Below, piece by piece: positions 767 through 41,909 of a stretch of 56,089 nucleotides of DNA. Below the pieces are notes generated by a model that ran no database searches, was not told the origin of the DNA, and saw only the letters and a list, made by a program, of their open reading frames with translations. The position numbers and the translations under genes are program-made. Numbering within the stretch: position 1 is the stretch's first letter; each line of letters begins with the position of its first letter. The stretch is from NCBI GenBank assembly GCA_045614365.1, contig JAZLCV010000207.1:1-56089 (forward strand), written 5' to 3'. The stretch is from Eubacteriales bacterium. Its GTDB lineage: Bacteria; Bacillota; Clostridia; Oscillospirales; JAAYXM01.

Positions 767-2707
767 TTAGAATATAATAGCCCTTGCACCGTCTTTTGAC
801 GCTTCCATGAGATAGTGATTTACCGAATACTTCGAATAATAAATGTTGAAATATTTGCCGTATACGGCACCAATACTCTCACAAATTCGGTTGAACTTTT
901 CCTGATGTTCAACTGATTTTTCATCTTCACCTATGTACTTGGCACAAAATGCGCGTGCAAGCTCTGTAATGTATTCTGTCTGCATACCGAGAAGCTCCCA
1001 TGAAATATGCTGCGCTTTCGGAAGTTCTGCAGAGAGATACTTTTCGATTATGGGTTTAAAGTCATCTACAATACCTTCAACCTTTTCGGCAAAGACCTTT
1101 TGCTCATCACGAGTGCCCTCCGCATCCTTATAGTAGCGATAAACCAAAGAAAAGGCATCTGAAATCTTGCTTAAATATTCAAATGCTTCATCTGCGCCTT
1201 CACCATAGGTTTCTTCGTAGCACTGCTTTTCTTCCGCATAATAGTCAACATTTCTGTTCCAAAGTGTTCGTGCCAAAATTCTGTTGGGGAAATCATTCGG
1301 TATCTGGCAGTTGAATATCTCACAGGATATGTTTCCGCCAAGTCCAAGATTCTTCAGGTTGTACATATCTTCATAAACAACTCTTGAAACATTGCGAAAC
1401 CCCGGATCTCTATACTGATTCCACATGAGGTGATAATCAAAGAGGAAGGAATCGCCTTTGATTTGTTTTTCCTGCCAATCGCGGAGATATACAAGGTTTT
1501 CAGCTGCCGAGACCGGCCAGGTAAGTTTGTTGCGTACATAAGGCGTTTTCTCGGCGGGCTTGTCGAAATCGGAATAGCTTGTATCATATCCTCTCGTAAT
1601 CGGAGCGAACATAAGAATGAATCTGTCGGGATTCTGTACCGTAAACTCCACAGGCTCCCACAAAAGGTCAACGTAAATGAGACATACGACGCGTGACTTG
1701 ATTTTCTCTTCCGTGAGGCGTCTGTCAAGGTCGTTAAGCATCATTACATACCAATCGGACGGTCTGTGCTTCTGGCATTCCTCACACTCACAGTGGTTGT
1801 TGCAGCCGTCAGCAAGCCAGAAATGAAGATAATCCACATCTGTATTTTTCTTGAGATAATCTACAATAGCTTCTACAATTGAATCCCGAACTTTCTGCTG
1901 TGAATAACAGAGCTGGGTCGCCAAAAGTGAGAGCCTGAGACTGCGATACATCTCTCTTTTGCCATTGCGCAGAGCTAATATTGACCTTTGCTCTTCGGTA
2001 AGAGCCTCGTTAGTGGTAATCGCTCTGCACTTTGCCTCATCGTGAAATCCTACTGCCTGTATATGCCAGCCATGTCCGACTCCGTGTCTTTTCAATCCTC
2101 TTTTCTTTGCTTCATGGGTTATAGCTTTGAATGTTGCTTTGCTATCCTCGTCGGTAAAGTTTTCGGCGCTATAATAGCCGATGCAATTATTTTCGGGCTT
2201 AAGCCCTTCTTTGTAATAATTGTTCAGTCCTTCTTTGGGGAACCAATCGATTATATCAATCTGTGTCTGAGTTGAGCCTGATCCGCAAAGGTCCATACCT
2301 CTGAATCGGTAAGAAGCTTTTTCTTCGTAGTCGAAATTAAAGGGTGAAAGAACCTTTTTCTCAATAATCTCACCATCACGACCGGGGCGAATCCATTTGC
2401 ACCCGAGTTTTTTTAAAAGACTGTACACACCAATAAGCACGGATATCGGATTCGTGCCCGCAATCATACCTGCATTGTTATTTATTTTAATGCGGAATGC
2501 ATCATCCATGGAAGGCTCCGGAACTGCTGGTGCAAATGCAGGGTCTGCCATCAGCCAGAGTGCATCCTTGCGCCCCGGATTATATGCGTCATAACAGAAA
2601 ACTTCAACATCAACAGTCTCGTCTATTTTATAAAGGTATCTGCGAAGCTCATCTAACGCAAACTCCACTGTTTCATTAGTGCCAACACGGCAAATTCTTA
2701 TTTGCAT
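767..2707 (-). CDS. Cytoplasmic DUF4838-like glycoside-hydrolase-fold protein (646 aa). The family assignment is tentative.
   Basis: Long ORF with a GAGGAG RBS and no signal peptide. It carries the Cys cluster DGCNNHCECEECQKH and an N-terminal region resembling GH20/GH67-type accessory domains. It is the last gene of cassette 1. Confidence 0.5.
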   Translation of the reverse strand: MQIRICRVGTNETVEFALDELRRYLYKIDETVDVEVFCYDAYNPGRKDALWLMADPAFAPAVPEPSMDDAFRIKINNNAGMIAGTNPISVLIGVYSLLKKLGCKWIRPGRDGEIIEKKVLSPFNFDYEEKASYRFRGMDLCGSGSTQTQIDIIDWFPKEGLNNYYKEGLKPENNCIGYYSAENFTDEDSKATFKAITHEAKKRGLKRHGVGHGWHIQAVGFHDEAKCRAITTNEALTEEQRSILALRNGKREMYRSLRLSLLATQLCYSQQKVRDSIVEAIVDYLKKNTDVDYLHFWLADGCNNHCECEECQKHRPSDWYVMMLNDLDRRLTEEKIKSRVVCLIYVDLLWEPVEFTVQNPDRFILMFAPITRGYDTSYSDFDKPAEKTPYVRNKLTWPVSAAENLVYLRDWQEKQIKGDSFLFDYHLMWNQYRDPGFRNVSRVVYEDMYNLKNLGLGGNISCEIFNCQIPNDFPNRILARTLWNRNVDYYAEEKQCYEETYGEGADEAFEYLSKISDAFSLVYRYYKDAEGTRDEQKVFAEKVEGIVDDFKPIIEKYLSAELPKAQHISWELLGMQTEYITELARAFCAKYIGEDEKSVEHQEKFNRICESIGAVYGKYFNIYYSKYSVNHYLMEASKDGARAIIF

Positions 2708-2751
2708 AATCGTTCTCCTCTCGGTAAATACGCATTAACACCTATATGTTT

Positions 2752-4302
2752 TTACTTTACTTTATTATAGGCTGCCTCATAAACTGCAAGGATCTCATCA
2801 ACAGGAAGTGTTGCAAGTTCATTCTGGAAAGCATCCCATTCACTCAGCGGTTTCTGACCAATTGCAAATTTCTGAATATTTTCATTTACAAAGGTAGTAA
2901 GCGTTGTTGAAAGGTCGGCTATCTTCTGCGATTCCTCCGACGTAAGCGCCAACCACATCGTCGGGTTAAGCTCAGAAACCGTGTGTTCAAGGAGGAAATC
3001 GGTTACCTCATACTGTTCTTTTGAAACCGTTTCACCTATCGCATCAGGATCAAAGCAGATGTTTACGCCACTTGTATTGATACCATAAAGCGTCTGCACC
3101 GTTTCTGCGCCGTCTCCTGTTATGAACTTCTTTTCGCCGTTTACAATCTCGTAGGTTTCTCCCTCTTTTCCCCACGAAACGAGCTCTATTGCTTCATCGG
3201 TGTAAAGCCAGTTTATATATCTGAATGCGTTTGCTATGCTTGCTGCATTTCCGGTGTTCGCAATTGCATATCCCTGTGGCGGATAATTGTATTTGTTAAG
3301 CTTGTTCACACCGCCCTCTGCCTTCGGAGGCATCATAGCCGCCATTGTAAAATCAGGATTTTTAGGACGTGCAAGCGTGTTGAAGAAGTCTATACGAACC
3401 TGATATTCCGGCATGAAAAAGCCACGGTTTGTTGCTATAAGCTCCTGCCATGATGCAGTGTTTATAGTAAAGCAGTCCGGAGAAGCAAGGCCTTCGGATA
3501 TCATTTTATTCAGGAACGACACTATATCATACATCACATCTTCGCGCACGCCGTAGCACCATTTATCAGCATTAAAATCATAATATGCGCTGTAATGGAA
3601 GCCTTCTTTCCAAGATGAGCCGATTACGTTTATATTGCGAAGCGCTGTGCGGAGAGCGAAGGGGTATGAATCCGGATATATCTCTTTAAGCTTCTTTGAA
3701 ACCTCATAAAGCTCATCCATTGTTTCCGGAGCTTTTAAATCATGTTTATCGAAAATATCCTTGCGGTAGAGCCAGCCACGAATATTTGTGCTGCGCTCAA
3801 GTCCGTAAACGGGAGCATAATATATCTTACCATCGTAGCTACGGCGCGTATCAATCATCCACTGCTCGTCCTCCGGCACATTCTTCCAGAACTCATTGTA
3901 GTCCGGAAGAAACTCTTCATAGTCGTCGAATGCAAGAAATGCACCCTGCTCACAAAAGTTATTGAAACTTCCCGGTTTTTCACCAAGTGCGAAAATATCC
4001 GGCATTTTGTCAGGAGCTGCCATTACAAGTGTAAATTTTGTTCCGAAATCCGCTTCTGGGACTGCTGTTATATTGATCGTTCCGCCTACGTTTTCTTTGA
4101 CGTATTCCCAGATCTTCCAATCCTCTTCATACGGCCAGGACGGATGGCTGACCGTCATCACATTGAGAACTGCATCATCGGGAATTTGCTTACCTTCCGG
4201 GATATCGTAGGATACTCCGTCGGAACGTGTTCCTGTGTTGCCGCACGCGCAAAGCGAAAGCAGCATAAGTGTTGCAAGTGTCAGTGCTATAAGTTTTTTC
4301 AT
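2752..4302 (-). CDS. Extracellular solute-binding lipoprotein of an ABC sugar transporter (family 1, LplA-like), 516 aa.
   Basis: The start was moved to MKKLIALTLATLMLLSLCACGN (lipobox LSLC-AC) with a GGAGGA RBS at 4312-4317. It has the length and motifs of large oligosaccharide SBPs and is a close paralog of 29734-31296. Confidence 0.85.
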   Translation of the reverse strand: MKKLIALTLATLMLLSLCACGNTGTRSDGVSYDIPEGKQIPDDAVLNVMTVSHPSWPYEEDWKIWEYVKENVGGTINITAVPEADFGTKFTLVMAAPDKMPDIFALGEKPGSFNNFCEQGAFLAFDDYEEFLPDYNEFWKNVPEDEQWMIDTRRSYDGKIYYAPVYGLERSTNIRGWLYRKDIFDKHDLKAPETMDELYEVSKKLKEIYPDSYPFALRTALRNINVIGSSWKEGFHYSAYYDFNADKWCYGVREDVMYDIVSFLNKMISEGLASPDCFTINTASWQELIATNRGFFMPEYQVRIDFFNTLARPKNPDFTMAAMMPPKAEGGVNKLNKYNYPPQGYAIANTGNAASIANAFRYINWLYTDEAIELVSWGKEGETYEIVNGEKKFITGDGAETVQTLYGINTSGVNICFDPDAIGETVSKEQYEVTDFLLEHTVSELNPTMWLALTSEESQKIADLSTTLTTFVNENIQKFAIGQKPLSEWDAFQNELATLPVDEILAVYEAAYNKVK

Positions 4303-4327: not shown

Positions 4328-5281
4328 TTATTCTTCATCGCCGTACAAACGCTTGACAGCGTGAACAATATCCAAACCATGCTCTCCCGTCACCGCCGGT
4401 TTTTTGCCTCCGGATTTCATTTCCTCGATGACAGCTGACATCTGGAAAAGCATTTTCTCAGGCTCACATTCTTTTTCTTTGAAAACACCGTCGACACCGC
4501 AGTATCTGACTGCATTACCAATTATTCGAATTTCGCCCTGAGTGAGATACAGCGAAACCATACATGTTATTGCAGCAGTATGTCCGATAAGATTAATCAG
4601 GCCAACTACGCCGTTTTCCATTTTTACAAACGCAACGGCACTGTCTTCAACATCATAGCCTTCTCTTATATGAACCTTTCCTGTAATCTCCGCAACTGAA
4701 GAATCTGTGAAAAATTTCATCTTGTCAAGGCTATGCGCACCGAGGTTCATCATTATCCCGCCACCGGACATTTCCTTTTTCAAAAACCATTGCGGACGGG
4801 ATGGGATAAAATAATTCTGATTTCTTGTTTCCGATATGCTGACAAGCTCTCCCAGTTCTCCAGAAGCAATAAGTTCTTTTGCAAAACGATATGCAGGAAC
4901 AAAGCGGTAAGGATGCCCTATCCAGAGCATAACGTCTGCTTTTTTACACGCCTCTATCATTCTTTTGCAGTCTTGTGAACTTACACCCATCGGCTTTTCC
5001 AGAAAAACATGAATTCCATGCTGTGCAGCAAAGCAAGTTGCCTCACCGTGAAGCGCATGCGGAAGCGTAATAAGCGCAAGATCAATATCTTCTCTTTTTA
5101 TCAGTTCTTTGTAATCAGCATATCCTTTCGCACCTGTTTTCTCACATACAGCCGCAAGGTTTTCGGAAGATATATCGCAGGCGGCAACAATTTCTGCATC
5201 ATCAATAGCTTCAATTGCCCTGACATGCTCCCAGCTTATCTTTCCACATCCGATAAGACCAATTTTTATTTTCATTTTCAA
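4328..5281 (-). CDS. Gfo/Idh/MocA family NAD(P)-dependent oxidoreductase (317 aa).
   Basis: N-terminal Rossmann motif IGLIGCGKIS and the EKP motif (FLEKPM). It sits between the giant gene and the SBP gene. Confidence 0.85.
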   Translation of the reverse strand: MKMKIKIGLIGCGKISWEHVRAIEAIDDAEIVAACDISSENLAAVCEKTGAKGYADYKELIKREDIDLALITLPHALHGEATCFAAQHGIHVFLEKPMGVSSQDCKRMIEACKKADVMLWIGHPYRFVPAYRFAKELIASGELGELVSISETRNQNYFIPSRPQWFLKKEMSGGGIMMNLGAHSLDKMKFFTDSSVAEITGKVHIREGYDVEDSAVAFVKMENGVVGLINLIGHTAAITCMVSLYLTQGEIRIIGNAVRYCGVDGVFKEKECEPEKMLFQMSAVIEEMKSGGKKPAVTGEHGLDIVHAVKRLYGDEE

Positions 5282-5328: not shown

Positions 5329-8300
5329 TTACTTTATATAATCGAGTATCCTCTTTATCAGCACCGCGACCTCGGCACGTGTGGTATAGTCGGTCGGTGC
5401 GATGAGGTTATTCTTGCCGTTGACAATTCCTGCGCCGATGAGGGCGGAAACAGCAGGTTTTGCATATTCCGCAACGATTGTGAAGTCAGCATATTTCGGT
5501 TCATCATCAATACCGAGCTCTACATTGAGCTTTTGCAATGCTCTGTAAACGATTACCATCATATCCTGACGGGTGACGGAATTTCTCGGGGCAAATTTAT
5601 TTTCGCCTATTCCACCGACAATGCCGTTATTACGCGCTATTGCAAGCTCGGCTGCAAAATAGTCACTTGCAGATACGTCTGCGAAATTCTCGGTGTTATC
5701 TGACTTTAAGTCAAATGCACGTACGAGAAGCAACGCAAAGTCTGCGCGGGTGATATTGTTTGCCGGTGAGAATGTTATTTCCGATGTTCCCTTTATAATT
5801 CCTGCCGTTGCAAGCTTGTTGATTGCATCGGATGCCCATGTGTGGTTACTTAAATCCGCGAATTGCGGAGCAATGTTCTCACCGTTTCCTGCATTGGTGC
5901 TGTCGGAAGCATCGGTATTGTCCTGCGGGACGTCGGATGAGACGTCTCCGGCATCATCTTTGGATGAATCTTCGGGTGTCGGTGAGGCACCGCCGCCTCC
6001 GCCACCAGCGGGTGGTGTATCGGTGGTTCCGGTTTCCTCGTTTTTACTTCCGCCCGTGGTAGAACCGTATACAGTTATATAGAAGTGAACGGTTGACTGT
6101 CTTCCGGATTCATCCGTTGCCGTAACGGCAAAGTGGTTTCTGCCAACCTGAGAGCTGTCAGGCTTCCACGTAACAGTTCCGGTTGCACCGTCGATGCTTG
6201 CGCCGCGCGGAAGTGTATTTCCTGAATACGTTACACTCTTGCCAAGATCACTATTTGCTTTAAGCGGAACTGATATAGAACTTCCCGCCGAAACAGAAAG
6301 CGAAGAGCTTATCGGATCAAAATACGGAGCAAAATCTTCACTATACGTTGCAGGAATACGTGCCGTCTGTCCTTCTGCTATCGTATATATGTATCCAAGC
6401 TCTGTATTAAATGAATCCTTATTCCTTCTGATAGGTGAAATTTTACCAACACTAAGAACAATATCCTCTCCGGACTGTTCTGCATCGTAAATTCTGAATG
6501 TTCCGCTTCTGGTTAAATCGCCGTTGTCAATAAATATGTATCTGTCGGAAATATCTTCTATCTCTTCATCTGTCAAATCTCGTTCAGGAATCAACGTGAT
6601 TTTATTGTCGGTTGATATTTCTTTCGTGAAATCCTTAACAACACCTTCAACCGTCGCTGTCGAAACAACTTCAGGCTTGCCGATAATATCACCGTCATGA
6701 ACATATTTATAAATATTTTCACCGTCTCCATTAACAGTGTATACCCCAACAAAACCACGGAAAAGAATGTCTTTACTCTCTCCTGCAATTTCATCGGTAA
6801 CTTTATACGTTACAGTATTGTTTGTAGCATAGAAGATATAATCCACTCTTCCATCCACATGAACAACCTTTATTGCACGGCTTGCATCACCGTCACTCTC
6901 AAAGCCGTCTGCAACTTCAATCGGAAGCTCAGAGCTTGCTTCGAGATATCGGTTTGTCCTATACGGTTCAAAAACTGTGGTAAAAACAGTGTCAAGATTT
7001 TTTCCGCTATTTTCAAGAAGTACATATTTAAGCTTATCAACCTCTTTGTTTTTTGCAGCCTGCGGCGGAAGTCCGTCAGCAATTGCAACATTTGCAGATG
7101 CACCACGGGCAACGTTACCTCCGTTGAGAACCATCATGCGTAAATGTAATCCCTTTGAGTCTTTAATATTCTTTTTGAAGTCGCGGATTTCAAAATCAAC
7201 TTCAAAAGCATCTTCCGGTGACTCATCACGATCTACATTCCGAAGCCATGTATATCCTTTCGGATGAGCGGGCTTTGCCGAATCTTTACCAAACGGAACA
7301 TTTTTTCCGGCATAAGTGCCAACGTACTCTCCCGATGCATCAACCTGAGGAATAAGAGAAAGTCCGTCTGTTTCTGAGATGGTATTGCTCGTCGCGTGGA
7401 GGCTGTATGTATGAGTATCACCACCGAGAACGCGGAAGAAATCAACTGTGTATGACACATCATCATTGACACGAACCATAACAAGTGAACGCCTGTACTG
7501 CCGGGTAGCCTTATAGACATAGTCTGCCGCAACGTCCATAACCTTAACTTGCCCGTCATCATCAAAATGCTTCATTTTCCCACGTGTTTCAGCATTCTCA
7601 GACTGCTCTTCCTCATTTACAAGAACAGTGTTGTGATTAATGGTTGTTCTCGTCCACTGCATACGCTCCGGATCACTTCCCGTAAGCTTTGGATATCCGT
7701 GGTCAGGAAGCATATTAAGGCCGAATGCCGTAAGACCGAGATTAAGTGTATCAAGATGTCCGTGTCCCGAATTGGAACCAAAATACATCCACACATCACG
7801 GCTTACATCCTTTGCGGTTGTTGTGTTGGTATCCGTGTAATCACCGTAATCACGAAGAATACCGAGGCCGAAGTTTGTCATTGCTCCGGAGCCTTGATTG
7901 AGAGGTCCATAGGTATCAATAACCTCCTGAACTTCGTCCTGGAGACTTTCCGGATTTTCAACTGTTATATCATAGAAAAGGCCTCTTGAGCTTCTTCCGT
8001 TCAGCTCATACATAACCTGAGCAAAGAGCGGGTCTTTAAGTTTTTCCCAACCATTACGAGCAGAGCTTACATTACCCCAATGACCTGTACCGCACGTTGT
8101 TCCGGAGTCGCCTATCTGAGGAGTATAGTTTGTCGACATCATCGGAATATATGCGTAAAACAGCTGAACAAATTTTACATTGTTAAACAGATTTACCTTA
8201 TCGTATCTGTCGTAGTTGTCGAAAATCTCCTGGATCTCGATAAGCGCACTCGACCAGTTACGGTTGTACTGTGAAGCCTCATCACCCTGACCATCCGCAT

Positions 8301-18900: not shown

Positions 18901-18915
18901 ATGTCAGCACCCGCC

Positions 18916-25933: not shown

Positions 25934-27256
25934 CTATCTCCTAAAAATATATGTAGCAATAGAATGTGCTTCAGCTTTCGCCTTAATCACTTTTCCCTCT
26001 ATCCTGAAGAAAAAGTCTTTATCTGCATCTCCTCTGTTAAGTACAACAGAAACCACACTTCCGTCCGGATTTTTAAAGGAAACGGTGTCCAACTCGTCCG
26101 TCCACTTGCTGCTGCCGATTCTCTTTGCCCCTTGTTTTACAAATTTGCTGAAATGACCAATATAGTAATATGAATCATTTATGTGAACCACGTTGTTTTT
26201 CGTATCTGCCATTATGGGTGCGGCGCAGAAATTACCTACATGATTAGGTCCACCCTTTTCGTCAAGCAGCAGATTCCAATCGCAGAACATATTACAGCCG
26301 TTATTGAAATTACCTATCATATCGTGAGCGTATTTTTCGCCGATTTTAACTGTATCGATTAAACCACGTCCGTATTCATAGCACCCTTCGGAGAAAACTA
26401 TATCCTTGTCGGGATACAACCTGCTAAACATATCAAGCTGCTCAAAATGGTCTCCACTGTACCAATGCAGAGCAATACCATAAATATATTTTGTGGCATC
26501 CGCATCCTCAAGAATCACCCTTGCTCTTTCAATAATTCTCTCTTTATTATGATCCCAGAATAATATCCTGACACCGATATCGTTCATTTTCTTTCCGAGA
26601 TAATTCTTGACAAAATCCCGTTCTTCCTCAGCGGTGTAAACGCATGAATCCCATGTTTGCGTTGCCGCAGGCTCATTTTGCACCGATATCATACCGATAT
26701 CAATGCCTCGTTTTTTGTATTCCTCTATGAATTTCACATAATACTGTGACCAGAGCTCAAAATACTCCTCTTTAAGCTTTCCTCCTCCGTTCATCTGCCC
26801 GTTTGTTTTCATATACGGCGGTGGGCTCCATGGCGATGCAAAGAGAGAAATTTTATTATATTTCATTGCATCTTTTATCATCGGTATTATTGATTTTTCA
26901 TCATGGCTTATATCAAATGTCTCCAAAGTTTCGTCGTCTTCATCAACATAAGTGTAATTGCCAAGTGCAAAATCACAGCTGTTTATATGAACGCGCCCGA
27001 AATTATAGCCTATTCCTTTGACCGGATCAAAATACAGCTTCAATATTTTCTCTCGGTTTTCCTTGCTTAATTTGTCTATTGTGCTGGAGGCCGCTTCTGT
27101 AAACGCTCCTCCAAATCCCTTTATTTCCTGATATTCTATATCGGGAAGCACGCAGATAAGCGAGCCTTCTCTGTCTTTGCTTTCTGCTACAGAAAAATCA
27201 GCCACCTCACTCATCGCAGTTTTTCCTTTTATCGTTTTTACTACGCTTATATTCAT
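25934..27256 (-). CDS. Glycoside hydrolase family 30 (glucosylceramidase-like), cytoplasmic (440 aa).
   Basis: GFGGAFTEAAS, RVHINSCDF, SPWSPPPYMKTNG and VQNEP (acid/base Glu motif). No signal peptide. Confidence 0.85.
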   Translation of the reverse strand: MNISVVKTIKGKTAMSEVADFSVAESKDREGSLICVLPDIEYQEIKGFGGAFTEAASSTIDKLSKENREKILKLYFDPVKGIGYNFGRVHINSCDFALGNYTYVDEDDETLETFDISHDEKSIIPMIKDAMKYNKISLFASPWSPPPYMKTNGQMNGGGKLKEEYFELWSQYYVKFIEEYKKRGIDIGMISVQNEPAATQTWDSCVYTAEEERDFVKNYLGKKMNDIGVRILFWDHNKERIIERARVILEDADATKYIYGIALHWYSGDHFEQLDMFSRLYPDKDIVFSEGCYEYGRGLIDTVKIGEKYAHDMIGNFNNGCNMFCDWNLLLDEKGGPNHVGNFCAAPIMADTKNNVVHINDSYYYIGHFSKFVKQGAKRIGSSKWTDELDTVSFKNPDGSVVSVVLNRGDADKDFFFRIEGKVIKAKAEAHSIATYIFRR

Positions 27257-29677: not shown

Positions 29678-29733
29678 ATACTTTCCCTCTTCTCTTGTTG
29701 AAAAAGGGCGGCAATGCCGCCCTTTTTTCTTTC

Positions 29734-34500: not shown

Positions 34501-37500
34501 GGATTCTTGTAAAGATTATCTTCATCGCGGAGACCATCCCAGTTTTCAATTGCTTCCATATACACTGAGAATGTGGAAACCCACAATTTCATATATCCCA
34601 TTGAGGATTCGTCTGCATACCCGTCGCGGTCAATCTTATTAAACAGCGCCGGACGCATTCCGCCGCCGGTGCATTTCGTCTGCGAGGTAACTCCCGGCTG
34701 CATAATGAACTCTATCATTTCGCTTGTATCCGGCTCACGATCAAGGATAACAGCCGCCAGTGCAAGGCTCTGCTGCTTCATACCAAAATTACCTGCTATC
34801 TGTCCGTTCTTTATTGCGGTATAGGTTTCAAAAAGCAGGTTCTCCTCTGCATTCTGACGGATAAGCTCGCCGTTTGTCTTCTTATTGTCAAGGTTCCATT
34901 GTTCTGCTTTTCCGGAAAGATAGCCTACTACCTCCGGATCATCATAGACATCAAAGAAGGCATCGTATGAGATGGTAAGAGTACTGTTCATCGTATTTTC
35001 CCAGATGCGCCCGACAACCTTACCGTTACCTCCTCCGTCGTGGGAGGACTGGAGCTTCGGGCAATCCGTGCCATAATCCATATCCGGATAAAGGTCTGCA
35101 ACTCTGTCAAGAATTATCGCACCAGCAATTCCGTACTTCTTATCACCCGTATACAGATACGCATCACGGAAGGCATTAAGCGAGCTTCGGACAAGTGCTT
35201 TTATACTTCCGGAGCCGTACCACACACCGTCGTGGTTGAATATCGCAACATAACGGTGGACATTTCTTATTTCCGTGTCTTCACTGCTTGTGTTGTAGCG
35301 TCCGGTGTCATAACCGAAGCCGTCATCAACACCCCAGAAATATCCGGTGGTCGGAACTCCGCTGTCTCCTCCGGTTTTGAAATCGCCCCAGCCCTGAGTT
35401 ATCTTGTCCTTATAGAACGGGTCAACCGCATCCGCGGCGTGAAGCTCGCTGTATGTTTCATTATAAAGATTACCCTTCGGGTCGCCGTAGCCATATGGGT
35501 TATCCTTTGCCCAGTCAAATACTACATACTCGCCTTTTTCGTTTCTTTCACCGCGACCGCAGAGAATTCCGTTTGCTTCTCTTGCAAGGGTATAGTCAAA
35601 CTCGCCGTGCTCGTCAAGTCCCCGCTTGTAGTATTCACCGAAGTCGTTACTCGGGAAAAGGCGCTTACAATCCGGACACTGTATCTTCCACGGACGTGCT
35701 ATCGCATCTATCTTCCATCCGTATTTGCCGTATTTGTAGTTTATGTCAACCCCGCAATAGAAACAGCGCCAGATAAGCGGGTCGTCCGTTTCAACAAGAT
35801 CGTAAGCGCGCGGAAGCGTATGCGCAGTTATCATATTATATATGAAATCATAATGCGGCAGATACTTATCCGCTTCTTCAATTGCCGCCTCTGCGGTATC
35901 CTCTGCCCAGTCATAAAGCTTTATGTTTTCACGTGCGGCGTTGACTTTCTTCTCCGTATAATACGTCTGGTCAGTCTTTCCGTCACGCACGGAAATTATT
36001 ATACTTTCGCTTCGTGAAACCCCATCAATTGTTACCGTTGCCTCGATTTCTGCAACGCCGGTATCAACCGGAGTTACGAAGCCTTTTTCATCAACGGTAA
36101 CTACGCTTTCATCCGACGATACATAGCTTAAGGCACCGTCCGGAACGGTAAGCGCCGCTCCGTTGTTGTCGTATGCACAGACAGAAAGCTTTATTCCTTC
36201 ACTGCTCTTCTTCAGAACCTGCGTTGCAGAGGTAAGCTCAAGGCTTGCAAAGCCTTCGCTGAGAACATTGAGCGGGATATAGTCTGAATAGTAAGTAGCT
36301 CCTCCAAAGGTTACCCTTGCCCTTACCGTTGTAGAGGCAGCCTTCACACCTGTTATCTTTTCTTCTGTGCTTACCGCAATTTCCGTATCAGCAACCTCAA
36401 ACTCAACAGAAATATCCTCTGCCTTGATTTCGCTTCCGTTTGTAAGATATGCTTTTACGACAGGAGAAACAGATCCTGAAACAAAGATGTCATACTGTGG
36501 TTCTGTAAATTCTATTCTGTCAAGCGTTTGCTCATTTACGGTAATCTCAATGCTTTTGCTTACCGCCGCGGCACCTTTTACATTTGCCGTTGCCGTTATT
36601 GTTGCCGTTCCCGGTGCCACGGCAACAAGCTTTTCACCGGATATTTTTACGATGCTGTCATCCGAGCTTTCAAGAGTAAGGTTATTTTCCGCATCCTTCA
36701 CGGTTTCCTTATCTCCGTGCTTTGCGCCGAAGACATAGCTTCGTCCGCCTGCCATAACCACACCCGGGGTAAGAGAGGTGCTTTCACCTGCCGCAAGAGA
36801 AGCTTTTTCTGCAGAAAGCTCTATTTTTTCAACACCGCCTTCTCCTTCAACATACGAAAGCTGGAGATAAGCGGGAATCATATATGAATAGCTTCCGGTG
36901 CTGTCTGTTTCCATTGCACGCATAGTGAAGGTATGCACGCCCTCTGTGAGATATATAGTGTTGAGAGATTTAAGCGCATTGTAGTTTCTGTTTGTAGACA
37001 TATCCGTCCAGAAGCAGAAATCACCTAAGAATTTACCGTCCATATACAGGTTTGTACGATTTGCACCGCGGTAGTACTGGGTTCCGAGGAAATCGAGCTC
37101 ATACCAGCCGTCATAATCCACCTGAATATCTATCGCGAGGTCTGCATTTCTTGTATTCCCGATTGTTTCCGTTTTAATCTGTACTCCCTGAGCATAACAA
37201 CGAAGATCCGGATTATTCGGGGTAATACACATATTCGCAGTTTTGTCCGTATTTATTTCCCAGCCGTATTGCTCTATCGTTACATTCGATGCAAAGCCGG
37301 ATCCCGGCTTACGGAAATCAATAAGCTTGCTCTTGGGAGATTTCGGCGTTACTTTAACTGAAAAAGGCTCACTTTTCTTGCTGTATTCTCCACACGTCAC
37401 CGTTGCAACAACATTTACGGACTCACACGCTGAAATGCCGGTGATAACTCCGGTATCGGGATCAAGCACAAGATACTGCTCATCCTCCGGATTTGCAAGT

Positions 37501-39812
37501 GCATAGGTCACCGTATATCTGTCGGCATTTTCAAGATCCGCCTCATTTCCGCTTTCATGCCATGCACGGACGGTAAGTGCCGTTGAGAAATCAACCTCAA
37601 CGTTGTCTGCACCGATAATCGCTGCATATTCAAACGGAGTATCATCCGCAACGGCAATATGCAGCGTTCCCTTTATCTGCACACCGTCTGCCTCAACCCA
37701 CACAGCAATATCTGCATTTCCCGGCCCACGGGCGGTAATGATACCGTCCTGCGAAACTGTTGCAACAGCGACATCCGAGCTTTCATACCAGTAAACAGAG
37801 CTTTCGCCGGTATACTCCTCTCCGTCATTGCAGAAAAGCTTATATTCTGTAATTTTTGCGGTTTCACCACGGGTAAGCTCCGTTTTATCTGCAGTCACCT
37901 CAGCGCGGTTAATAACAGGTTTTACATCACCAAACGATACAGAAACTGGTGCATCACGGGTTTCCCCGCCTATCGTTACGGTTGCAGTAATCTCTGCATC
38001 TCCGTTTGAAACAACAGTGATAACACCGTTGTTATCAACGGTAGCAATACCATCATCAGAAGATGTATATTTTATCTCACCGTCACCGAGTGCCGCGCCG
38101 ATAGTTATCGGATTCCCTGTGTTTGAATAAAGAGATAGCACGGTTTTGACTGTATCGCCGCACTGCAGGTCTTTTGTTTCCCCGGAAAGAGAAAGCTCTG
38201 CACGGTCAAATGCGACCTCATGTACCGAGAGGTGTGCCACCGATATGTCTGCTCCCTTGCATTCCGTTGCAATAAAATTAAGGCGCGGCTCAATACCGTA
38301 ATGAGTGTTATAGCCGTAATTTAAGTAAAGCGACGGGGTAGTAAACTTCGTCCACGGCTGATCTCCGCTCTTCTCTGCCCACAGCTGGGTTGCCATATTC
38401 TTCAACGACACAGCACTTGATGAGAGTTCGTTGTAATAATACATACGTATATCAGCAACCGGAAGGGTATTCGTGTTTTCGCTCTTTATATATCCGGTCA
38501 TTTCATAGAGCTTACCCGCACCTCCGACGAGGAGTGTTCTCTGGTCACTTGCTTTCGTTGAATAAGCTACATTTCCCTGAAGACGAATACGGTTCAGGTC
38601 CCCGGTCGGCTTCATAGAGAATTTCGGAATGTTGGTCGTCTCCCCTGTTATTTCCGAAACAATACCCTTCAAAAGCTCATAATCATATACATATGTACTT
38701 GTATTTTTCGACGATTTCCAGAAAGTGTCTTTCTTGCCAACCGAATTTGAACTATCGCCCAGATATACATCGCGTTCAAATTCACCGTGGTTATACGTTG
38801 TCACCAAAAGATTTTTGCCGATTATATTTACCTCGCATTTTGCGGAAATGCTGTCATTCCCCAAAGTTGCCGTTGCGGTAACCGTTGTTCTGCCGGGGGC
38901 AAGCGGCGTGAACACTCCGTTTTTCTGCGAAAGGATTTTTTCATTTTCAATCTTATAAGCAAGCTTTATTCCGGAACTCAGCTCTTTTCCGTCTCCGTCC
39001 GTAATGGTAAGCGGATATTGCTTCCCTGCAGTCAGAAGGTCTTCAGCAAAGGATGCCTCTATGCTTTCGGGAAGACGTACAACCTCATCCTCACTTACCT
39101 CCTGCCCCACCGGAACTATCCTTATTCCGGAAAGATACATTTCCTGGCGGTACCAGTAATAAGCAGAACTAGCTTCAGTCTCCATAACCGTTCCGTAAAC
39201 CGGATCATCCGGATTTTCATTTCTCCCTTTGTTGTTCAAGGCTAAGGAAGTTGGGTCTGCCACAAAGAGGATATAATAATCTCCCTTTTCAAGAGTTATT
39301 GTTTGTTTTGTTCCGTCTGCGCTTCCGTCAGCCGTAACCGGTGCATATTCACCCTTCGGTGCCTTGGAAAAGTTGAAATATCCAAGCGTTGTTTTCTCTC
39401 CTGTCAATTGATTAGGAGCTACGGCACCGGAAACTTTTTTATCATATTTTCCCATAGCAACCAACGGTGCAACGGATGTTTCCGTCGGATTATCGGTTTT
39501 AAAATAAAGATTATATTCCCCCGGCACATTTACGGTAACCTTTATTGCACCGTGTTGTGTATTCCCGTTATTGGAATCCACACCGCCACCGCCGCTGCCG
39601 TAACGTCGCACCTGGATACTTGTCCATGAAAGCACTGCGCTTGTGTATTCATATATACCTTTGCTGGAAACAGTGGAAGTATATGCGTAAAAATCAGACA
39701 GCGCAAGCTTCTGCTCCTCACCTGCCGCAAATGCCGGCATCACGGGAAGCAGGGATATTATCAGCGCGATGCTCAGAAGCAGTGATAAAATCCTGTTCAG
39801 TTTAGTTTTCAT
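31596..39812 (-). CDS. Giant (2738 aa) secreted, SLH-anchored multi-module protein with a heparinase II/III-type lyase core. Paralog of 5329-14241.
   Basis: - The start was set at MKTKLNRILSLLLSIALIISLLPVMPAFAAGE (signal peptide; the ORF extends upstream to 39893).
- CBM4/9-like segment.
- Big_2-like repeats (YTSSDDGIATVDNNGVITVVSNGDAEITA).
- Lyase core with HKHQDALNLGL..DLGY..ISHNTVLVN.
- He_PIG-like domain.
- G/T/P-rich linker.
- Three SLH repeats. Confidence 0.9.
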   Translation of the reverse strand: MKTKLNRILSLLLSIALIISLLPVMPAFAAGEEQKLALSDFYAYTSTVSSKGIYEYTSAVLSWTSIQVRRYGSGGGGVDSNNGNTQHGAIKVTVNVPGEYNLYFKTDNPTETSVAPLVAMGKYDKKVSGAVAPNQLTGEKTTLGYFNFSKAPKGEYAPVTADGSADGTKQTITLEKGDYYILFVADPTSLALNNKGRNENPDDPVYGTVMETEASSAYYWYRQEMYLSGIRIVPVGQEVSEDEVVRLPESIEASFAEDLLTAGKQYPLTITDGDGKELSSGIKLAYKIENEKILSQKNGVFTPLAPGRTTVTATATLGNDSISAKCEVNIIGKNLLVTTYNHGEFERDVYLGDSSNSVGKKDTFWKSSKNTSTYVYDYELLKGIVSEITGETTNIPKFSMKPTGDLNRIRLQGNVAYSTKASDQRTLLVGGAGKLYEMTGYIKSENTNTLPVADIRMYYYNELSSSAVSLKNMATQLWAEKSGDQPWTKFTTPSLYLNYGYNTHYGIEPRLNFIATECKGADISVAHLSVHEVAFDRAELSLSGETKDLQCGDTVKTVLSLYSNTGNPITIGAALGDGEIKYTSSDDGIATVDNNGVITVVSNGDAEITATVTIGGETRDAPVSVSFGDVKPVINRAEVTADKTELTRGETAKITEYKLFCNDGEEYTGESSVYWYESSDVAVATVSQDGIITARGPGNADIAVWVEADGVQIKGTLHIAVADDTPFEYAAIIGADNVEVDFSTALTVRAWHESGNEADLENADRYTVTYALANPEDEQYLVLDPDTGVITGISACESVNVVATVTCGEYSKKSEPFSVKVTPKSPKSKLIDFRKPGSGFASNVTIEQYGWEINTDKTANMCITPNNPDLRCYAQGVQIKTETIGNTRNADLAIDIQVDYDGWYELDFLGTQYYRGANRTNLYMDGKFLGDFCFWTDMSTNRNYNALKSLNTIYLTEGVHTFTMRAMETDSTGSYSYMIPAYLQLSYVEGEGGVEKIELSAEKASLAAGESTSLTPGVVMAGGRSYVFGAKHGDKETVKDAENNLTLESSDDSIVKISGEKLVAVAPGTATITATANVKGAAAVSKSIEITVNEQTLDRIEFTEPQYDIFVSGSVSPVVKAYLTNGSEIKAEDISVEFEVADTEIAVSTEEKITGVKAASTTVRARVTFGGATYYSDYIPLNVLSEGFASLELTSATQVLKKSSEGIKLSVCAYDNNGAALTVPDGALSYVSSDESVVTVDEKGFVTPVDTGVAEIEATVTIDGVSRSESIIISVRDGKTDQTYYTEKKVNAARENIKLYDWAEDTAEAAIEEADKYLPHYDFIYNMITAHTLPRAYDLVETDDPLIWRCFYCGVDINYKYGKYGWKIDAIARPWKIQCPDCKRLFPSNDFGEYYKRGLDEHGEFDYTLAREANGILCGRGERNEKGEYVVFDWAKDNPYGYGDPKGNLYNETYSELHAADAVDPFYKDKITQGWGDFKTGGDSGVPTTGYFWGVDDGFGYDTGRYNTSSEDTEIRNVHRYVAIFNHDGVWYGSGSIKALVRSSLNAFRDAYLYTGDKKYGIAGAIILDRVADLYPDMDYGTDCPKLQSSHDGGGNGKVVGRIWENTMNSTLTISYDAFFDVYDDPEVVGYLSGKAEQWNLDNKKTNGELIRQNAEENLLFETYTAIKNGQIAGNFGMKQQSLALAAVILDREPDTSEMIEFIMQPGVTSQTKCTGGGMRPALFNKIDRDGYADESSMGYMKLWVSTFSVYMEAIENWDGLRDEDNLYKNPKFIKMLYMGIDQYLAGVRSANIGDNSSTFAGVSFPNYTTSWLEGLRLTGDPVFAQLLWHTNGQSADGIHYGIFVEDPESPQEQIKQLVEQYDEYNFSESSITTGYGFAALRDGVMYDKVTTPTQTNTMRDWWMYFGGAATTHKHQDALNLGLDAFGLNMAPDLGYFSSSGGTGTTQGANWTESTISHNTVLVNDTPQVRIQQAGYPYHFEDAGSIKIMDVDAPQAYPGVTETYRRTVVSIDVDDTVSYALDFFRIVGGDEHVYSFHSQSEESVVTGVDMIAQPQGSYAGVDVPFGEETKYTATNGFNWLANVKRAVAPQTGEFSIDFKITDYRKVLKGKRNLHLKLTQLNDFNISEVATADGQPVQHDVNPEFTDYLLVRRSGKDLDTLFTSVIEPYEDESKIRSLTRVPVTYADGSELGRNETVTSIKVELTNGRVDYVVYAANNETAYRIDNLFDFEGFVGVYSVNATDNTDVVRTYLHDGKTLGAAIQNKDSAVTGEIVSFTDTLSLENFMEVTYNEEIAPEELVGRMIVIENDGSQNGAYMIKSAEKEGDHLRIGTGDVSYFRSLTADGNDYVMNIAKGDTYRIPLTYVTDNAPEIDVSGTFTTSAGSSIKIPLNVTSDREYTLIGTSLPRGMSLNAETGVLTWKPDASQVGENHVAVTVDNGVLSDTVHFIVTVYGNTTGGSTSDKTETSGADNTGTTGTPPASGGSGGGGGAAPTDKPDGTANPGETDTSGESGENTDNTGTENNSLRFTDLDDHAWAADEINALAADGIIKGTTASTFSPASNITRADFALLLVRAFKLESENTENFVDVSANDYFATELAIARNTGIINGIGDNKFAPRNTITRQDMMVIVYRALEAYLTLKGSEAERNVGAAMNDSPVDYQNRDVTEPGEMGPSNDGGGISPSLYPDFANVADYAKTAVSALVGAGLVNGKNGRIAPTDYTTRAEVAVLLKRILDYVK

Positions 39813-39956
39813 ACATTGGTCTCCTTTCAATTTTGCCCGCCGGCCGGGGGCTGTTTTTCTCTGTAGGGTTCGGCGCTTGCCGACGAACTGCATATATTCC
39901 CTCTTGTCTATTATAGCGGAGAGACTTAACTCTCCGCTATAGGTAAATTATTCCGC

Positions 39957-41909
39957 TTATTTCGTGTATGAGCCGTCGGTGTATTCTGTATATGTTCCGT
40001 CGGAATTTTTAATAACGGCATATCCCTTTGCACTTGTTGCATCTCCAAGCTCGACAGTAAACTGGGATTTCTTGCTTGTCATTGCAATTTTGGTCGTACC
40101 AAGAATTATTCCCTTTTCTACTGCATCGTCAAAGCCGATAAACTCTGCCATTACATTATTGTTGCTTCCGAAAACGTCGATTATGATCTTGCGCGCAACC
40201 GATGTAATCGGAGTGTGTTCTTTGTAAATAGCCTTTACTGTGCAATTTTCCCATGCGGAGAAGCGGTATTCTTCAGAATCTATGCTTACAATCTCTCCGT
40301 CCTTCTCCCACGCATAGAAGGTTCCTGTTCCGTTCGGCGTGCAGGTAACAATGTCCCCGTAAGCATATTTCGTCTTATCGGTTGTGCAGCCATCGGTTGT
40401 GATTGTGATGTCTGTCGACGGATCATCATACTTTGCAATAAGCATCATTGTTTCATTGACCGTTATCGGTACATTGCCGGCGTATGTTGTTCCGTCTTCT
40501 GCCACCCAGCAGCTTGCAGCGCCGTAGCCTGCCATCGAAGGAAGCTCGGGTGTTGTTCCGGTTGCCGTTTCTACCTTTCCGTAAAGCAAGCCGTTTGCAT
40601 TGTAAAACTCTGCCTTAGGAGATGTTGCGCCGTTCTTTTCATAAACTGCGATAAGGTAGTTTACAACATTTCCGGTCGGTGTGTAGATAAAGCTTTCTTC
40701 ACGAGAAACAACTCTTTTTGCTCCGCCATCAAGACCTTTTGCCCAGTAAAGGAATGTGTTATCTTTGTTCGCTGTTGATGTGCTCATCCGATATGTGCCG
40801 TCACTAAGCTGTGTTGCAGTTGCGGTTACGCCATCCGCAACCTCTGCGCCGTCAACATACGGAAGAGCCGTTACTTTGTCTGTGTATACAACTGCCTCCA
40901 CTGTTTCTGTATCATCCGGTGAAAATGCGTCAGTGAGACCCGGATCTTCTGCGGGAGCAGGAGCATTTACTGTAACAGTCGTTGTGTATGTTTTATTTCC
41001 GACTGTTGCAACGACAGTTGCAGGACCTGGATTTTTAGCTGTTATTACACCGGATTCGGGATCAATATCGATAAAATCCTTACCGCCTTCTTCAACGGAA
41101 TATGTTACAAAACTGCCCAAAACATCTGTGCCTTCGACCTTAATGGATGCTGTTGTTGTCACGCCTATCTCAATTGAAGGCTCTGCAACCGAAAAAACAG
41201 CATTGTCGGGACCGGCGACCTTTGTAAGCTTTAAGTTATATATATAAGCTTCGGTTATTCCAGCACTAATAAACGATTGCGTTCTTGTATAGATTCCAAA
41301 AATAATCGGAGTCGTGCCGTCTGTGTAAATCACTTTGCTATTATATGCAGAAAAATCCGTAGAAGCATTTTTACTGTTTCCGATCTGATGTTCTGTAGTT
41401 ATATAGTCTTCGATTGTTTTTTTATCGCTGAGCTTTGGTCCGGCAAATAAGATAGGTCCGGCAGTTCCTTTTGAAGAAAGCACATAATAACCGGCTTCAC
41501 TCGGTGCTTCAAGTTCTACACCGATTTTCGTTTCAGCAGGCATCGAGTCCTTATAAGCTTTATTTCTCAATCTAAGACCGTCATTCGTAACAGATACTAA
41601 GTTAGCGTCTCCTTGCTCAAGCCAGGACCAAACAGTAGCATCTACATCAAAATACTTCCAGCCATGATGGTATGTGCCGGTGTCGTCCGTACAACCGTAA
41701 GCCTTAATTCGCGCAAAACCATACTGGTGGTGTCCCTCAAGGGTTTCGTCCATAACCTCCGAACTCCAAATATGAACCCCGTTCTTCCCCGTGGCGGCTC
41801 GTCCAAAAACATATTCTTTTTCCACCGTTGCGGAAGCGCTTACAGTAATACCGGCAAACATTGATAAGCATATCGTCATTGCCAAAATAACCGAAATAAT
41901 CTTTTTCAT
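39957..41909 (-). CDS. Secreted accessory protein (650 aa). Paralog of 14397-16286.
   Basis: GGGAGGA RBS and signal peptide MKKIISVILAMTICLSMFAGITVSASA. It has a Big_2-like segment (YSVEEGGKDFIDIDPESGVITAKNPGPATVVA) and B-repeat-like segments (FLYWAKG, FYAWEKDG). No anchor. Confidence 0.8.
   Translation of the reverse strand: MKKIISVILAMTICLSMFAGITVSASATVEKEYVFGRAATGKNGVHIWSSEVMDETLEGHHQYGFARIKAYGCTDDTGTYHHGWKYFDVDATVWSWLEQGDANLVSVTNDGLRLRNKAYKDSMPAETKIGVELEAPSEAGYYVLSSKGTAGPILFAGPKLSDKKTIEDYITTEHQIGNSKNASTDFSAYNSKVIYTDGTTPIIFGIYTRTQSFISAGITEAYIYNLKLTKVAGPDNAVFSVAEPSIEIGVTTTASIKVEGTDVLGSFVTYSVEEGGKDFIDIDPESGVITAKNPGPATVVATVGNKTYTTTVTVNAPAPAEDPGLTDAFSPDDTETVEAVVYTDKVTALPYVDGAEVADGVTATATQLSDGTYRMSTSTANKDNTFLYWAKGLDGGAKRVVSREESFIYTPTGNVVNYLIAVYEKNGATSPKAEFYNANGLLYGKVETATGTTPELPSMAGYGAASCWVAEDGTTYAGNVPITVNETMMLIAKYDDPSTDITITTDGCTTDKTKYAYGDIVTCTPNGTGTFYAWEKDGEIVSIDSEEYRFSAWENCTVKAIYKEHTPITSVARKIIIDVFGSNNNVMAEFIGFDDAVEKGIILGTTKIAMTSKKSQFTVELGDATSAKGYAVIKNSDGTYTEYTDGSYTK

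Follow-up and report, generated by a model that had tools for sequence, protein, structure and literature searches.

Contig JAZLCV010000207.1 of an Eubacteriales bacterium (Clostridia, Oscillospirales; assembly GCA_045614365.1) is analysed here over its whole length of 56,089 nucleotides, called the window below, and it raises the question of why one succession of genes occurs in it twice. In both places a secreted accessory protein (A1, A2) is followed by a giant protein with S-layer homology (SLH) repeats and a lyase-like core (G1, G2) and by a lipoprotein of the substrate-binding protein (SBP) type (S1, S2). The initial annotation of the sequence had taken the repeat for an old duplication of one cassette. 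The answer reached here, which we hold to be fairly likely, is that each locus belongs independently to a large and modular family of cassettes with which gut Oscillospiraceae harvest glycans at the cell surface. All of the open reading frames (ORFs) previously proposed are present at their coordinates in the ORF listing, which together with Pfam scans places every cassette gene on the minus strand. The shorter starts of G2 (39812), S1 (4302) and A1 (16286) are preceded by good GGAGG/AAGGAG ribosome-binding sites, and the start of G1 also has a good ribosome-binding site. The two cassettes and the genes that follow them are composed as listed here.

14397-16286, minus strand: A1, secreted accessory protein of 629 aa with a signal peptide; Pfam Flg_new_2, 50 bits.
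5329-14241, minus strand: G1, giant lyase-like protein of 2970 aa, predicted to be SLH-anchored (ORF, Pfam, signal peptide MKRIISTILALSLLCGLLPAISLA).
11542-14160, minus strand: G1 modules A (aa 28-335), A' (aa 336-615) and B (aa 616-900); A matches A' at E 1e-27.
10162-10986, minus strand: module B' of G1 (aa 1086-1360), of the B type like B, which it matches at E 1e-29.
6262-9744, minus strand: lyase-fold core of G1 (aa 1500-2660), from an AlphaFold2 (AF2) model and Foldseek.
9292-9417, minus strand: four-Cys insert of G1 (CRFCG...QCPDCKRLFPSNDF); of 88 related cores, 87 retain Cys110 and Cys113.
7750-7764, minus strand: HGHLD motif of G1, with H2160 as predicted base and H2162 as predicted metal ligand from a profile alignment.
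8464-8466, 8266-8268 and 8107-8109, minus strand: predicted partner residues N1926, Y1992 and D2045 of G1, mapped from the roles in the lyase Uly1040.
5329-5886, minus strand: predicted triple SLH cell-wall anchor of G1 (aa 2786-2970); Pfam SLH, 96 bits.
4328-5281, minus strand: GFO1, cytoplasmic Gfo/Idh/MocA oxidoreductase; Pfam, 103 bits.
2752-4302, minus strand: S1, lipoprotein SBP of 516 aa with the N-terminus ...LSLCACG; SBP_bac_1, 52.8 bits.
767-2707, minus strand: D1, DUF4838-like protein of 646 aa without a signal peptide, 44 bp past S1; Pfam, 35.7 bits.
39957-41909, minus strand: A2, secreted accessory protein of 650 aa, recognised by homology to A1; no Pfam match.
31596-39812, minus strand: G2, giant lyase-like protein of 2738 aa, predicted to be SLH-anchored (Pfam, BLASTP against G1, motif mapping).
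32613-36092, 36393-37262, 34062-34076 and 35640-35765, minus strand: core, B module, HKHQD motif and four-Cys insert of G2, respectively.
29734-31296, minus strand: S2, lipoprotein SBP of 520 aa; SBP_bac_1, 59.9 bits.
29700-29728, no strand assigned: GC-rich palindromic hairpin (13 pairs, 7 GC) with T and A runs in the gap between S2 and the next gene.
27797-29677, minus strand: cytoplasmic beta-N-acetylhexosaminidase of the GH20C type (glycoside hydrolase family 20); Glyco_H_20C_C, 185 bits.
25934-27256, minus strand: GH30, from Pfam, 540 bp beyond the GH20 gene.

The recurrence of accessory, giant and SBP in the same order on the minus strand is confirmed by the ORFs and by BLASTP. Pairwise BLASTP gives 62% identity between S1 and S2 over 520 aa and 35% between G1 and G2 over 2350 aa (G1 727-2970 against G2 494-2738), and 26% between A1 and A2 over ~600 aa, with values of 26-30% over nearly their full length across the comparisons made. 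At the codon level the proportion of differing synonymous sites (pS) amounts to 0.78 in S1/S2, 0.76 in G1/G2 and 0.70 in A1/A2, so that the synonymous divergence already seen between the copies extends to saturation in all three pairs; nucleotide identity over aligned codons is 46-66%. In the final window of the giant alignment, which starts at G1 aa 2815 and takes in most of the SLH tail, the proteins are 76% identical and pS is 0.77. Because synonymous sites are saturated, including those of the SLH tail, the repeat can be neither an assembly duplicate nor the product of recent gene conversion; it is real, ancient and under purifying selection. The likeness ends with the SBP. The fourth gene, which had been counted as part of the repeat, is D1 in one cassette and the GH20 gene in the other, and these are not detectably homologous (no BLAST match; hhalign probability 1%). 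Since no homology is detected between the fourth genes and a hairpin separates S2 from GH20, the conserved unit is a triad and not a cassette of four or five genes.

The triad is also conserved in relatives. A scan of one genome per species yields at least 524 confirmed genomic relatives of the core, and genomic context was taken from the best 80 loci, all of which come from Oscillospiraceae, Eubacteriales or Clostridia metagenome-assembled genomes (MAGs) of gut origin (goat, Hadza human and others). The window's own PrmA protein falls in a cluster with proteins from Oscillospiraceae MAGs. The accessory homologue lies immediately upstream of the giant in at least 23 of 54 informative cases, and an SBP lies at most two ORFs downstream in at least 17 of 54, both counts being lower bounds because many of the contigs are short. 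Complete giants in these loci have a median length of 2623 aa and are mostly SLH-tailed, several loci hold two cores and tandem cassettes occur. Among the best 80 loci, 15 belong to the MAG RGIG3057, 14 to SGB_470 and 13 to SIG480. In a HMMER scan of 1.84 billion representative sequences, clustered at 50% identity, E<=1e-3 is reached by 3980 clusters and E<=1e-30 by 1245, with proteins of up to 4110 aa, and many members are also held by Paenibacillus, Cohnella and some actinomycetes. One member of 4066 aa (P0273) contains two complete lyase cores in a single polypeptide.

Against this background the history of the two cassettes can be weighed. If one ancestral cassette of accessory, giant, SBP and cytoplasmic enzyme had been duplicated within the lineage and its copies had diverged under selection, the identical order and strand of copies 25 kb apart and the homology of all three core components would be expected, and the saturated synonymous sites would fit an old event. 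Yet closer relatives lie elsewhere: the G1 core is 55-62% identical to members in other MAGs versus 36-38% to G2, the G2 core, too, finds its best counterpart among the fetched loci (42%) in another MAG, and S2 shares 72-73% identity with the SBPs of four further MAGs (loci L012, L025, L055 and L077) versus 62% with S1. Across 17 cassettes the identities of SBP and core are uncorrelated (Spearman rho 0.10, p 0.23), and cassettes are thus mosaics. The family-wide conservation of the tails, described next, the fourth genes, with no homology detected between them, and the presence of 13-15 or more loci in each of three related MAGs likewise argue against a single duplication, which we consider improbable. 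The earlier reading therefore stands in so far as the repeat is old, diverged and selected and is no assembly duplicate; as an account of one cassette duplicated once it is too simple. That the repeat is an artefact of assembly or binning has a negligible probability, given the values of nucleotide identity and pS above, with near-identity of the two loci looked for and not seen, and given an independent MAG contig (L001) whose orthologue of cassette 1 is 90% identical and includes the Gfo/Idh/MocA, SBP and DUF4838 genes in unchanged order. Independent membership of a multiplied family remains the preferred explanation.

The ends of the giants illustrate the mosaic character of the cassettes. 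Both giants carry a signal peptide and three SLH repeats (Pfam, 96 bits in G1 and 101 bits in G2), the tail matches the Sap SLH structure in the Protein Data Bank (PDB) at E 3e-12, and these features are those expected of an SLH-anchored surface protein. The tail motifs quoted earlier are present, with NITRADFALLLVRAF at G1 2829 and G2 2561 and APTDYTTRAEVAVL at 2948 and 2716. The near-identical tails had been taken as a mark of kinship between G1 and G2, a meaning they lose in the family at large, where the SLH anchor is conserved throughout: the 185-aa tail gives 69 matches in 61 sequences, of which the 40 best-scoring are 67-80% identical. The orthologue of G1 in L001 is ~90% identical elsewhere and merely 74% in its SLH tail (8237-8788 against window 5332-5886), and tails of unrelated paralogues reach 80%, which suggests that tails have been exchanged among paralogues. 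This family-wide conservation implies one kind of cell-wall polymer as the ligand of all these proteins and is no sign of a special kinship between G1 and G2. G2 has an insertion of ~35 aa (...EAERNVGAAMNDSPVDYQNRDVTEPGEMGPSNDGGGIS...) between SLH repeats 2 and 3 (31599-32258) that is absent from G1.

The N-terminal regions of the giants are more variable in composition. Each N-terminal module of G1 consists of a carbohydrate-binding module (CBM)-like beta-sandwich and an immunoglobulin (Ig)-like domain, and Pfam finds weak CBM35/malectin-like beta-sandwiches followed by Big_2-type Ig domains in these regions. Where four copies of one module had been described, G1 instead has two A-type and two B-type modules, which share just the Ig-like part. 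In G2 the one B-type module is borne out (E 1e-19 to the B module of G1), and the A-type and CBM4/9-like modules also proposed for it find no significant similarity. As the modules of the two giants differ, the substrates of the two cassettes probably differ as well.

The core between these modules and the anchor has the fold of polysaccharide lyases. Hidden Markov model (HMM) scanning places Hepar_II_III_C (PF07940) above the Pfam threshold of 24 bits in both giants, with 44.4 bits in G1 (aa 2155-2276) and 31.4 bits in G2 (aa 1910-1973). Homologues were collected with G1 aa 1500-2660, and an alignment was made of 37 standalone relatives; the AF2 model of the G1 core has a mean pLDDT of 88.3 and a pTM of 0.88. 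It contains an alpha/alpha toroid (residues ~47-612), a beta-sandwich with strands from 620 and an extra beta domain. When the model is compared with the PDB by Foldseek, the first 38 places are all polysaccharide lyases (PL), with probability 1.00 to families PL40, PL17, PL39, PL15, PL12 and PL21; E-values are 6e-26 for PL40 Uly1040 (9vtk), ~1e-23 for PL17 and 6e-18 for PL39, and PL15, PL12, PL21, PL33 and glycosaminoglycan (GAG) lyases also appear. Sequence identity to the Foldseek matches is 9-18%. By sequence, the sole PDB relatives found are PL17 alginate lyases (E 1e-3 to 8e-5 with single sequences, 2e-12 with a profile). At the level of the model the lyase fold of the core is thus demonstrated for G1, and G2 would share it, given ~35% identity to G1 over the whole core; the description of the giants as SLH-anchored proteins with a lyase-fold core agrees with Pfam, the AF2 model and Foldseek.

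Candidate catalytic residues can be proposed by reference to Uly1040, in which mutagenesis has shown that N245 and W246 neutralise the carboxylate, Y305 is the catalytic acid, H485 is the catalytic base and D358 and H487-Mn activate the base, in a mechanism built on a His-Asp-His-metal tetrad (PMC12915356). A profile alignment pairs the family HGH with H485-G-H487 in Uly1040 and with the PL17 HGH, and a conserved HNT follows further on. The family invariants N427, Y493, D546, H661 and H663 are spaced by +66, +53 and +115, and N245, Y305, D358 and H485 of Uly1040 by +60, +53 and +127. All of the candidate residues are present in both giants, at the following positions.

Asn, predicted neutraliser: G1 N1926, G2 N1675.
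Tyr, predicted acid: G1 Y1992, G2 Y1740.
Asp, predicted activator: G1 D2045, G2 D1795.
His, predicted base: G1 H2160, G2 H1913.
His, predicted metal ligand: G1 H2162, G2 H1915.

Of the 88 related cores, 85-87 keep the candidate acid, base, neutraliser and activator; the base His and the HNT His each occur in 86 and the metal His occurs in 83. The difference between HGHLD at G1 2160 and HKHQD at G2 1913, already noted, is confirmed and is confined to non-catalytic positions. Taken together, the fold and these residues make beta-elimination the best-supported chemistry for the core, with the roles of Asn, Tyr and Asp as putative ones. The four-Cys insert (CxxC...CxxC, ending in ...RLFPSNDF) is conserved in 87 of 88 Oscillospiraceae cores and may be a zinc ribbon; Paenibacillus homologues keep the motif around it and have lost all four cysteines. 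The core falls outside PL17 and PL40 because the alignment to these families covers ~120 residues of the beta domain at 14-18% identity, a statement that concerns these two among the PL families. The NCBIfam oligoalginate lyase model scores 18 bits against a cutoff of 1400.

The accessory proteins appear to be tied to the giants through a shared module. A1 and A2 are secreted and carry no SLH, LPXTG or transmembrane anchor. Their conservation is concentrated in the C-terminal half from ~aa 318, which comprises Flg_new_2-type repeats and a conserved terminal domain, and the N-terminal 300 aa, a beta-sandwich and an Ig part, are variable. The AF2 model of A1 (pLDDT 75) is an all-beta string of beads with no enzyme fold, and a fold search returns generic multi-domain Ig/Fn3 matches alone (TM ~0.1), with no functional clue. 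The first ~235 aa past the signal peptide were then compared with the N-terminal regions of the giants in 22 pairs. The best match of the accessory module is its own adjacent giant in 12 of the 19 significant cases and in 13 of all 22 pairs, and against a chance of 1 in 22 the binomial probability computed over all 22 pairs is 3e-11. These matches reach E 1e-188, occupy the same position in both proteins (aa ~30-260) and have identities of 41-89% in protein and up to 86% in DNA, the last value implying that some of the exchanges between accessory and giant are fairly recent. Such matching agrees with a role of the accessory as a binding partner of the enzyme, matched to its substrate. One further arrangement (L082, 5272-13051) places a standalone core of 1016 aa without a signal peptide beside a secreted hybrid of 945 aa, two aldose epimerases and an AraC gene; the hybrid is a giant B-module fused to the C-terminal half of an accessory, which indicates that modules move between the two kinds of protein. 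To our knowledge, no parallel has been described for an accessory that copies the N-terminal module of its enzyme.

The SBPs, in turn, point to uptake of the products. Both exceed the SBP_bac_1 threshold of 26 bits and have the lipoprotein sequence ...LCAC-G at their N-termini. Their description as orphans holds: Pfam scans of the window find no permease or ATPase near them, and tblastn with two Paenibacillus CUT1 permeases as queries gives no match, either in the window or across the 80 related loci, which were fetched with up to 10 kb on each side (1.16 Mb). Likewise, the 25 commonest neighbour families include neither an ABC permease nor an ATPase. In Paenibacillus contaminans the homologue of the core (P0075) adjoins a two-component system, an SBP and two permeases, and by analogy this locus supports a role in nutrient uptake for the family. 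Arrangements in which several SBPs serve one permease are established in other ABC systems.

From these elements the following course of glycan harvesting can be proposed. The giant would be exported by the Sec pathway and tethered to the wall by its three C-terminal SLH repeats, where it would display CBM-like and Ig modules together with a core of ~1100 aa of the heparinase II/III-like lyase fold. The core would carry out beta-elimination at uronate in the manner of PL39 and PL40, with Asn neutralising the carboxylate, His taking the C5 proton after activation through Asp and the metal-binding His, and Tyr protonating the leaving oxygen. The accessory would act as a secreted, non-catalytic, all-beta binder of the giant's polymer. 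In relatives its N-terminal module is a copy of the module with which its own giant begins, so that both probably bind one polymer; its conserved C-terminal half probably has a task shared by all cassettes, docking for example. The lipoprotein SBP would capture the oligosaccharide products and probably hand them to an ABC permease that is encoded elsewhere and shared among cassettes. Cytoplasmic Gfo/Idh/MocA, DUF4838-like and GH20 enzymes would complete degradation, and sensing of the imported product probably falls to AraC-type regulators, whose cupin domains are cytoplasmic.

Several observations weigh against this course, and some of them are shared with other explanations. The giants might not be lyases at all, being either C5-epimerases on the same fold or surface adhesins or S-layer-associated proteins without catalytic activity. 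In Foldseek the core matches human dermatan-sulfate epimerase 1 (6hzn), which has the same fold, at E 1e-11, the unsaturated uronyl hydrolases GH88 and GH105 are both outside the 25 commonest neighbour families, and the searches found no biochemical record for any member and no characterised member of the clade, all source names being a generic 'heparinase II/III family'. A literature search on heparinase II/S-layer homology lyases in Paenibacillus or Ruminococcaceae found nothing relevant. That unsaturated uronyl hydrolases do not figure among the commonest neighbour families also speaks against a classic GAG-type pathway. Sequence alignment to known lyases is limited to the C-terminal third of the core, and the roles of Asn, Tyr and Asp are predicted from residue spacing and from a single weak HMM segment, which aligns the Tyr region to PL17. 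Some standalone core homologues have no signal peptide. An epimerase or an adhesin is nevertheless improbable in our judgement, as the 38 best structural matches are all lyases, a non-catalytic role is hard to square with the full acid, base and neutraliser set that 85-87 of 88 paralogues keep, the SBP, glycosidase and AraC neighbours fit catabolism and the Paenibacillus members lie in ABC-importer loci.

The accessory and the SBP meet similar difficulties. Within the window the match between the A1 and G1 modules is weak (rank 1 of 22, E 0.0018, 29% identity), and that between A2 and G2 takes rank 2 and is not significant (E 0.097); both weaken the case for a matched binding partner. The shared permease is not observed in the window or in the stretches of loci that were searched. 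For this reason the orphan SBPs could be surface glycan-binding or sensor proteins comparable to SusD/E/F, with uptake by another route, and the decoupling of SBP divergence from enzyme divergence would agree with such a role. It is, however, unlikely: S1 and S2 are ordinary SBP_bac_1 lipoproteins, the SBP of the Paenibacillus relative adjoins two permeases, and the cupin domains of the AraC regulators are cytoplasmic, which requires an inducer to be imported. Product uptake by SBPs that work with a permease encoded elsewhere is thus retained in the favoured reading.

In the surroundings of the cassettes, a Pfam census of 127 neighbouring ORFs of the related loci shows which functions recur.

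AraC regulators: 29 of 127 ORFs, the commonest family.
Gfo/Idh/MocA oxidoreductases: 13 of 127 ORFs.
GH20: 6 of 127 ORFs.
Xylose-isomerase-like TIM-barrel proteins: 3 of 127 ORFs.
GHL6: 3 of 127 ORFs.
GH109: 2 of 127 ORFs.
GH39: 2 of 127 ORFs.
DUF4838: 2 of 127 ORFs.

In the window itself the corresponding flanking features, all recognised by Pfam, are these.

42041-42847, minus strand: xylose-isomerase-like TIM-barrel gene upstream of A2.
43118-43921 or 44026, minus strand: AraC-family regulator, two genes upstream of A2.
16467-20932, minus strand: five-gene operon of oxidoreductases and a metallo-beta-lactamase (MBL)-fold protein, directly upstream of cassette 1.
21038-21937, plus strand: AraC gene divergent from the five-gene operon.

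The statement of the initial annotation that the cassettes contain no regulator is misleading, as the second gene upstream of A2 encodes an AraC regulator, another AraC gene accompanies the operon that precedes A1 and AraC is the commonest neighbour in related loci. These regulators carry cytoplasmic cupin domains. The target of the gene at 43118-44026 is ambiguous because it also diverges from an operon at 44067-48983 that encodes a short glycyl radical enzyme (710 aa, PFL2/dehydratase class), a short-chain dehydrogenase/reductase (SDR), a beta-lactamase-fold hydrolase and a radical S-adenosylmethionine (SAM) activase.

The enzymes downstream of the SBPs are cytoplasmic, as had been proposed, in that they have no signal peptides. 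The GH20 protein has the catalytic and C-terminal domains of the GH20C/GcnA type (Glyco_H_20C_C 184.8 bits, Glyco_hydro_20 28.5 bits; PDB 2epk GcnA, E 2.8e-146, full length). The hairpin at 29700-29728 is probably a terminator, and GH20 is probably a neighbour on a separate transcript. A substrate with uronate and N-acetylhexosamine (HexNAc) had been suggested; the HexNAc part finds weak support in the GH20 and GH109 neighbours and remains a modest hint, and the uronate part is not matched by the uronyl hydrolases discussed above. D1 has no match among PDB sequences, and its homologue in L001 is 93% identical. A Gfo/Idh/MocA homologue follows the giant in 11 loci, and GFO1 is an optional cassette component that recurs in relatives. 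The five-gene operon encodes an MBL-fold protein, a PIG3-type quinone oxidoreductase, a DHquinase-I/DeoC-like protein, an SDR and a 423-aa Gfo/Idh/MocA protein, is separated from A1 by a terminator-like hairpin (16330-16348) and may be a linked cytoplasmic sugar-oxidation pathway. Homologues of this operon flank giant cassettes in three other loci (L022, L023 and L030). The pairing of TIM-barrel and Gfo/Idh/MocA proteins is typical of oxidative glycan breakdown through 3-keto-glycosides; NCBIfam glycoside 3-dehydrogenase matches are far under their cutoffs, and at the equivalog level NCBIfam names neither the oxidoreductases nor the TIM-barrel protein nor the glycyl radical enzyme. Among precomputed hits are also three newer Pfam families, PF26374, PF26918 and PF26182.

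Between the cassettes lies a pair of an AbiEii nucleotidyltransferase toxin and a DUF6088 (AbiEi-like) antitoxin (22039-23560) with a low GC content of 0.33, probably an island of mobile or defence character. At 23654-25738 a LysR regulator stands beside an Mbeg1-like protein (289 bits), which has the highest GC content among the genes between the cassettes (0.486). GC content at third codon positions is 0.465 in G2 and 0.534 in S2 versus 0.39 in G1, with G1, A1 and GH20 ranging from 0.34 to 0.39; a reading of this difference as a sign of horizontal transfer was rejected, the values being inside the gene-to-gene range of the window. The single tRNA gene is a tRNA-Ser (GCT) at 51117-51208, and an Rfam scan of the window finds no family at its gathering score. 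Promoter scans gave counts at or below the shuffle expectation in the cassette-1 region and ~2 standard deviations above it in the cassette-2 region and were not used.

Oscillospiraceae are abundant in human and ruminant guts and poorly cultured, and their glycan acquisition is far less understood than that of Bacteroidetes. The interest of the locus lies mainly in an uncharacterised, heavily multiplied enzyme family and in an unusual cassette logic. If the favoured reading is true, it marks a large enzyme family of more than 1000 clusters at 50% identity that is annotated just as 'heparinase II/III family', and it describes a cassette design in which a helper shares the targeting module of the enzyme and a binding protein comes without its own transporter. 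The core boundaries, catalytic residues and binding modules would then be targets for enzyme discovery and for the prediction of glycan use; if lyase activity should be absent, the family would represent an unusual surface use of the lyase fold. A bolder interpretation, offered tentatively as doubtful though possible, is that of a Gram-positive counterpart of the Sus-like systems, based on an uncharacterised lyase family with a perhaps zinc-binding insert, present in more than 12 cassettes per genome, in which the accessory keeps a copy of the targeting module of its lyase and many SBPs, one per cassette, serve a single ABC permease encoded elsewhere, an uptake design so far unrecognised, and which would make the lineage a specialist on many different uronate-containing glycans of host, dietary or microbial origin.

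Among known enzymes, PL40 Uly1040 (9vtk) and PL39 Dp0100 (6jp4) share with the core the fold of an alpha/alpha toroid and an antiparallel beta-sheet. The H-x-H of the family aligns to the base and metal ligand of Uly1040, and the spacing of Asn, Tyr, Asp and His fits its His-Asp-His-metal tetrad (PMC12915356). The residue after the Asn is Phe in this family and Trp or His in PL40. Identity to the PL40 and PL39 enzymes is 15-18%, with a TM of 0.44 on the query versus 0.61 on the target, and the G1 core is ~350 aa larger, with the four-Cys insert and an extra C-terminal beta domain. Those enzymes are 800-aa proteins of marine Bacteroidota and Proteobacteria, whereas the proteins described here are of 2700-3000 aa, apparently SLH-anchored and from anaerobic Firmicutes. 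PL17 enzymes (Alg17c 4nei, AlgL17 9irq) have Hepar_II_III_C, the HGH..D..HNT metal and catalytic motifs and the fold in common with the core, but the similarity is restricted to ~120 beta-domain residues at 14-17% identity and no alginate-pathway genes lie nearby. The gellan lyase of Bacillus sp. GL1, a giant extracellular enzyme of a Paenibacillus-like organism, reportedly made as a 263-kDa precursor with an active N-terminal part of 130 kDa (~1170 aa) that comes close to the present core in size, was considered as a lead and found unsupported, its name being absent among the best 120 of 648 matches to the Paenibacillus core and published gellan lyases being placed in PL33. Closer relatives are Paenibacillus and Cohnella proteins (P0075, P0097), whose cores are 33-38% identical over ~1100 aa and are decorated with CBM, Ig or SLH domains; they differ in the absence of the insert cysteines, in a CBM-like domain before the HGH in some of them and in the permeases present in the P0075 locus.

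At the level of gene organisation, a polysaccharide utilization locus (PUL) of Gram-positive bacteria is understood as the co-location of a degradative carbohydrate-active enzyme, a transport system and a regulator. In the window the enzyme and the SBP are present, permease and ATPase are absent and AraC genes are adjacent, so far as can be judged from the genes. As in Gram-positive PULs and the Sus-like systems of Bacteroidetes, a surface enzyme, a glycan-binding protein, an SBP, a regulator and cytoplasmic glycosidases are found together, and the unit is multiplied many times per genome with varied specificity modules. Unlike both, the cassettes have no permease or ATPase of their own, the predicted anchor is of the SLH type and not a lipid or an outer membrane, and the accessory copies a module of the enzyme.

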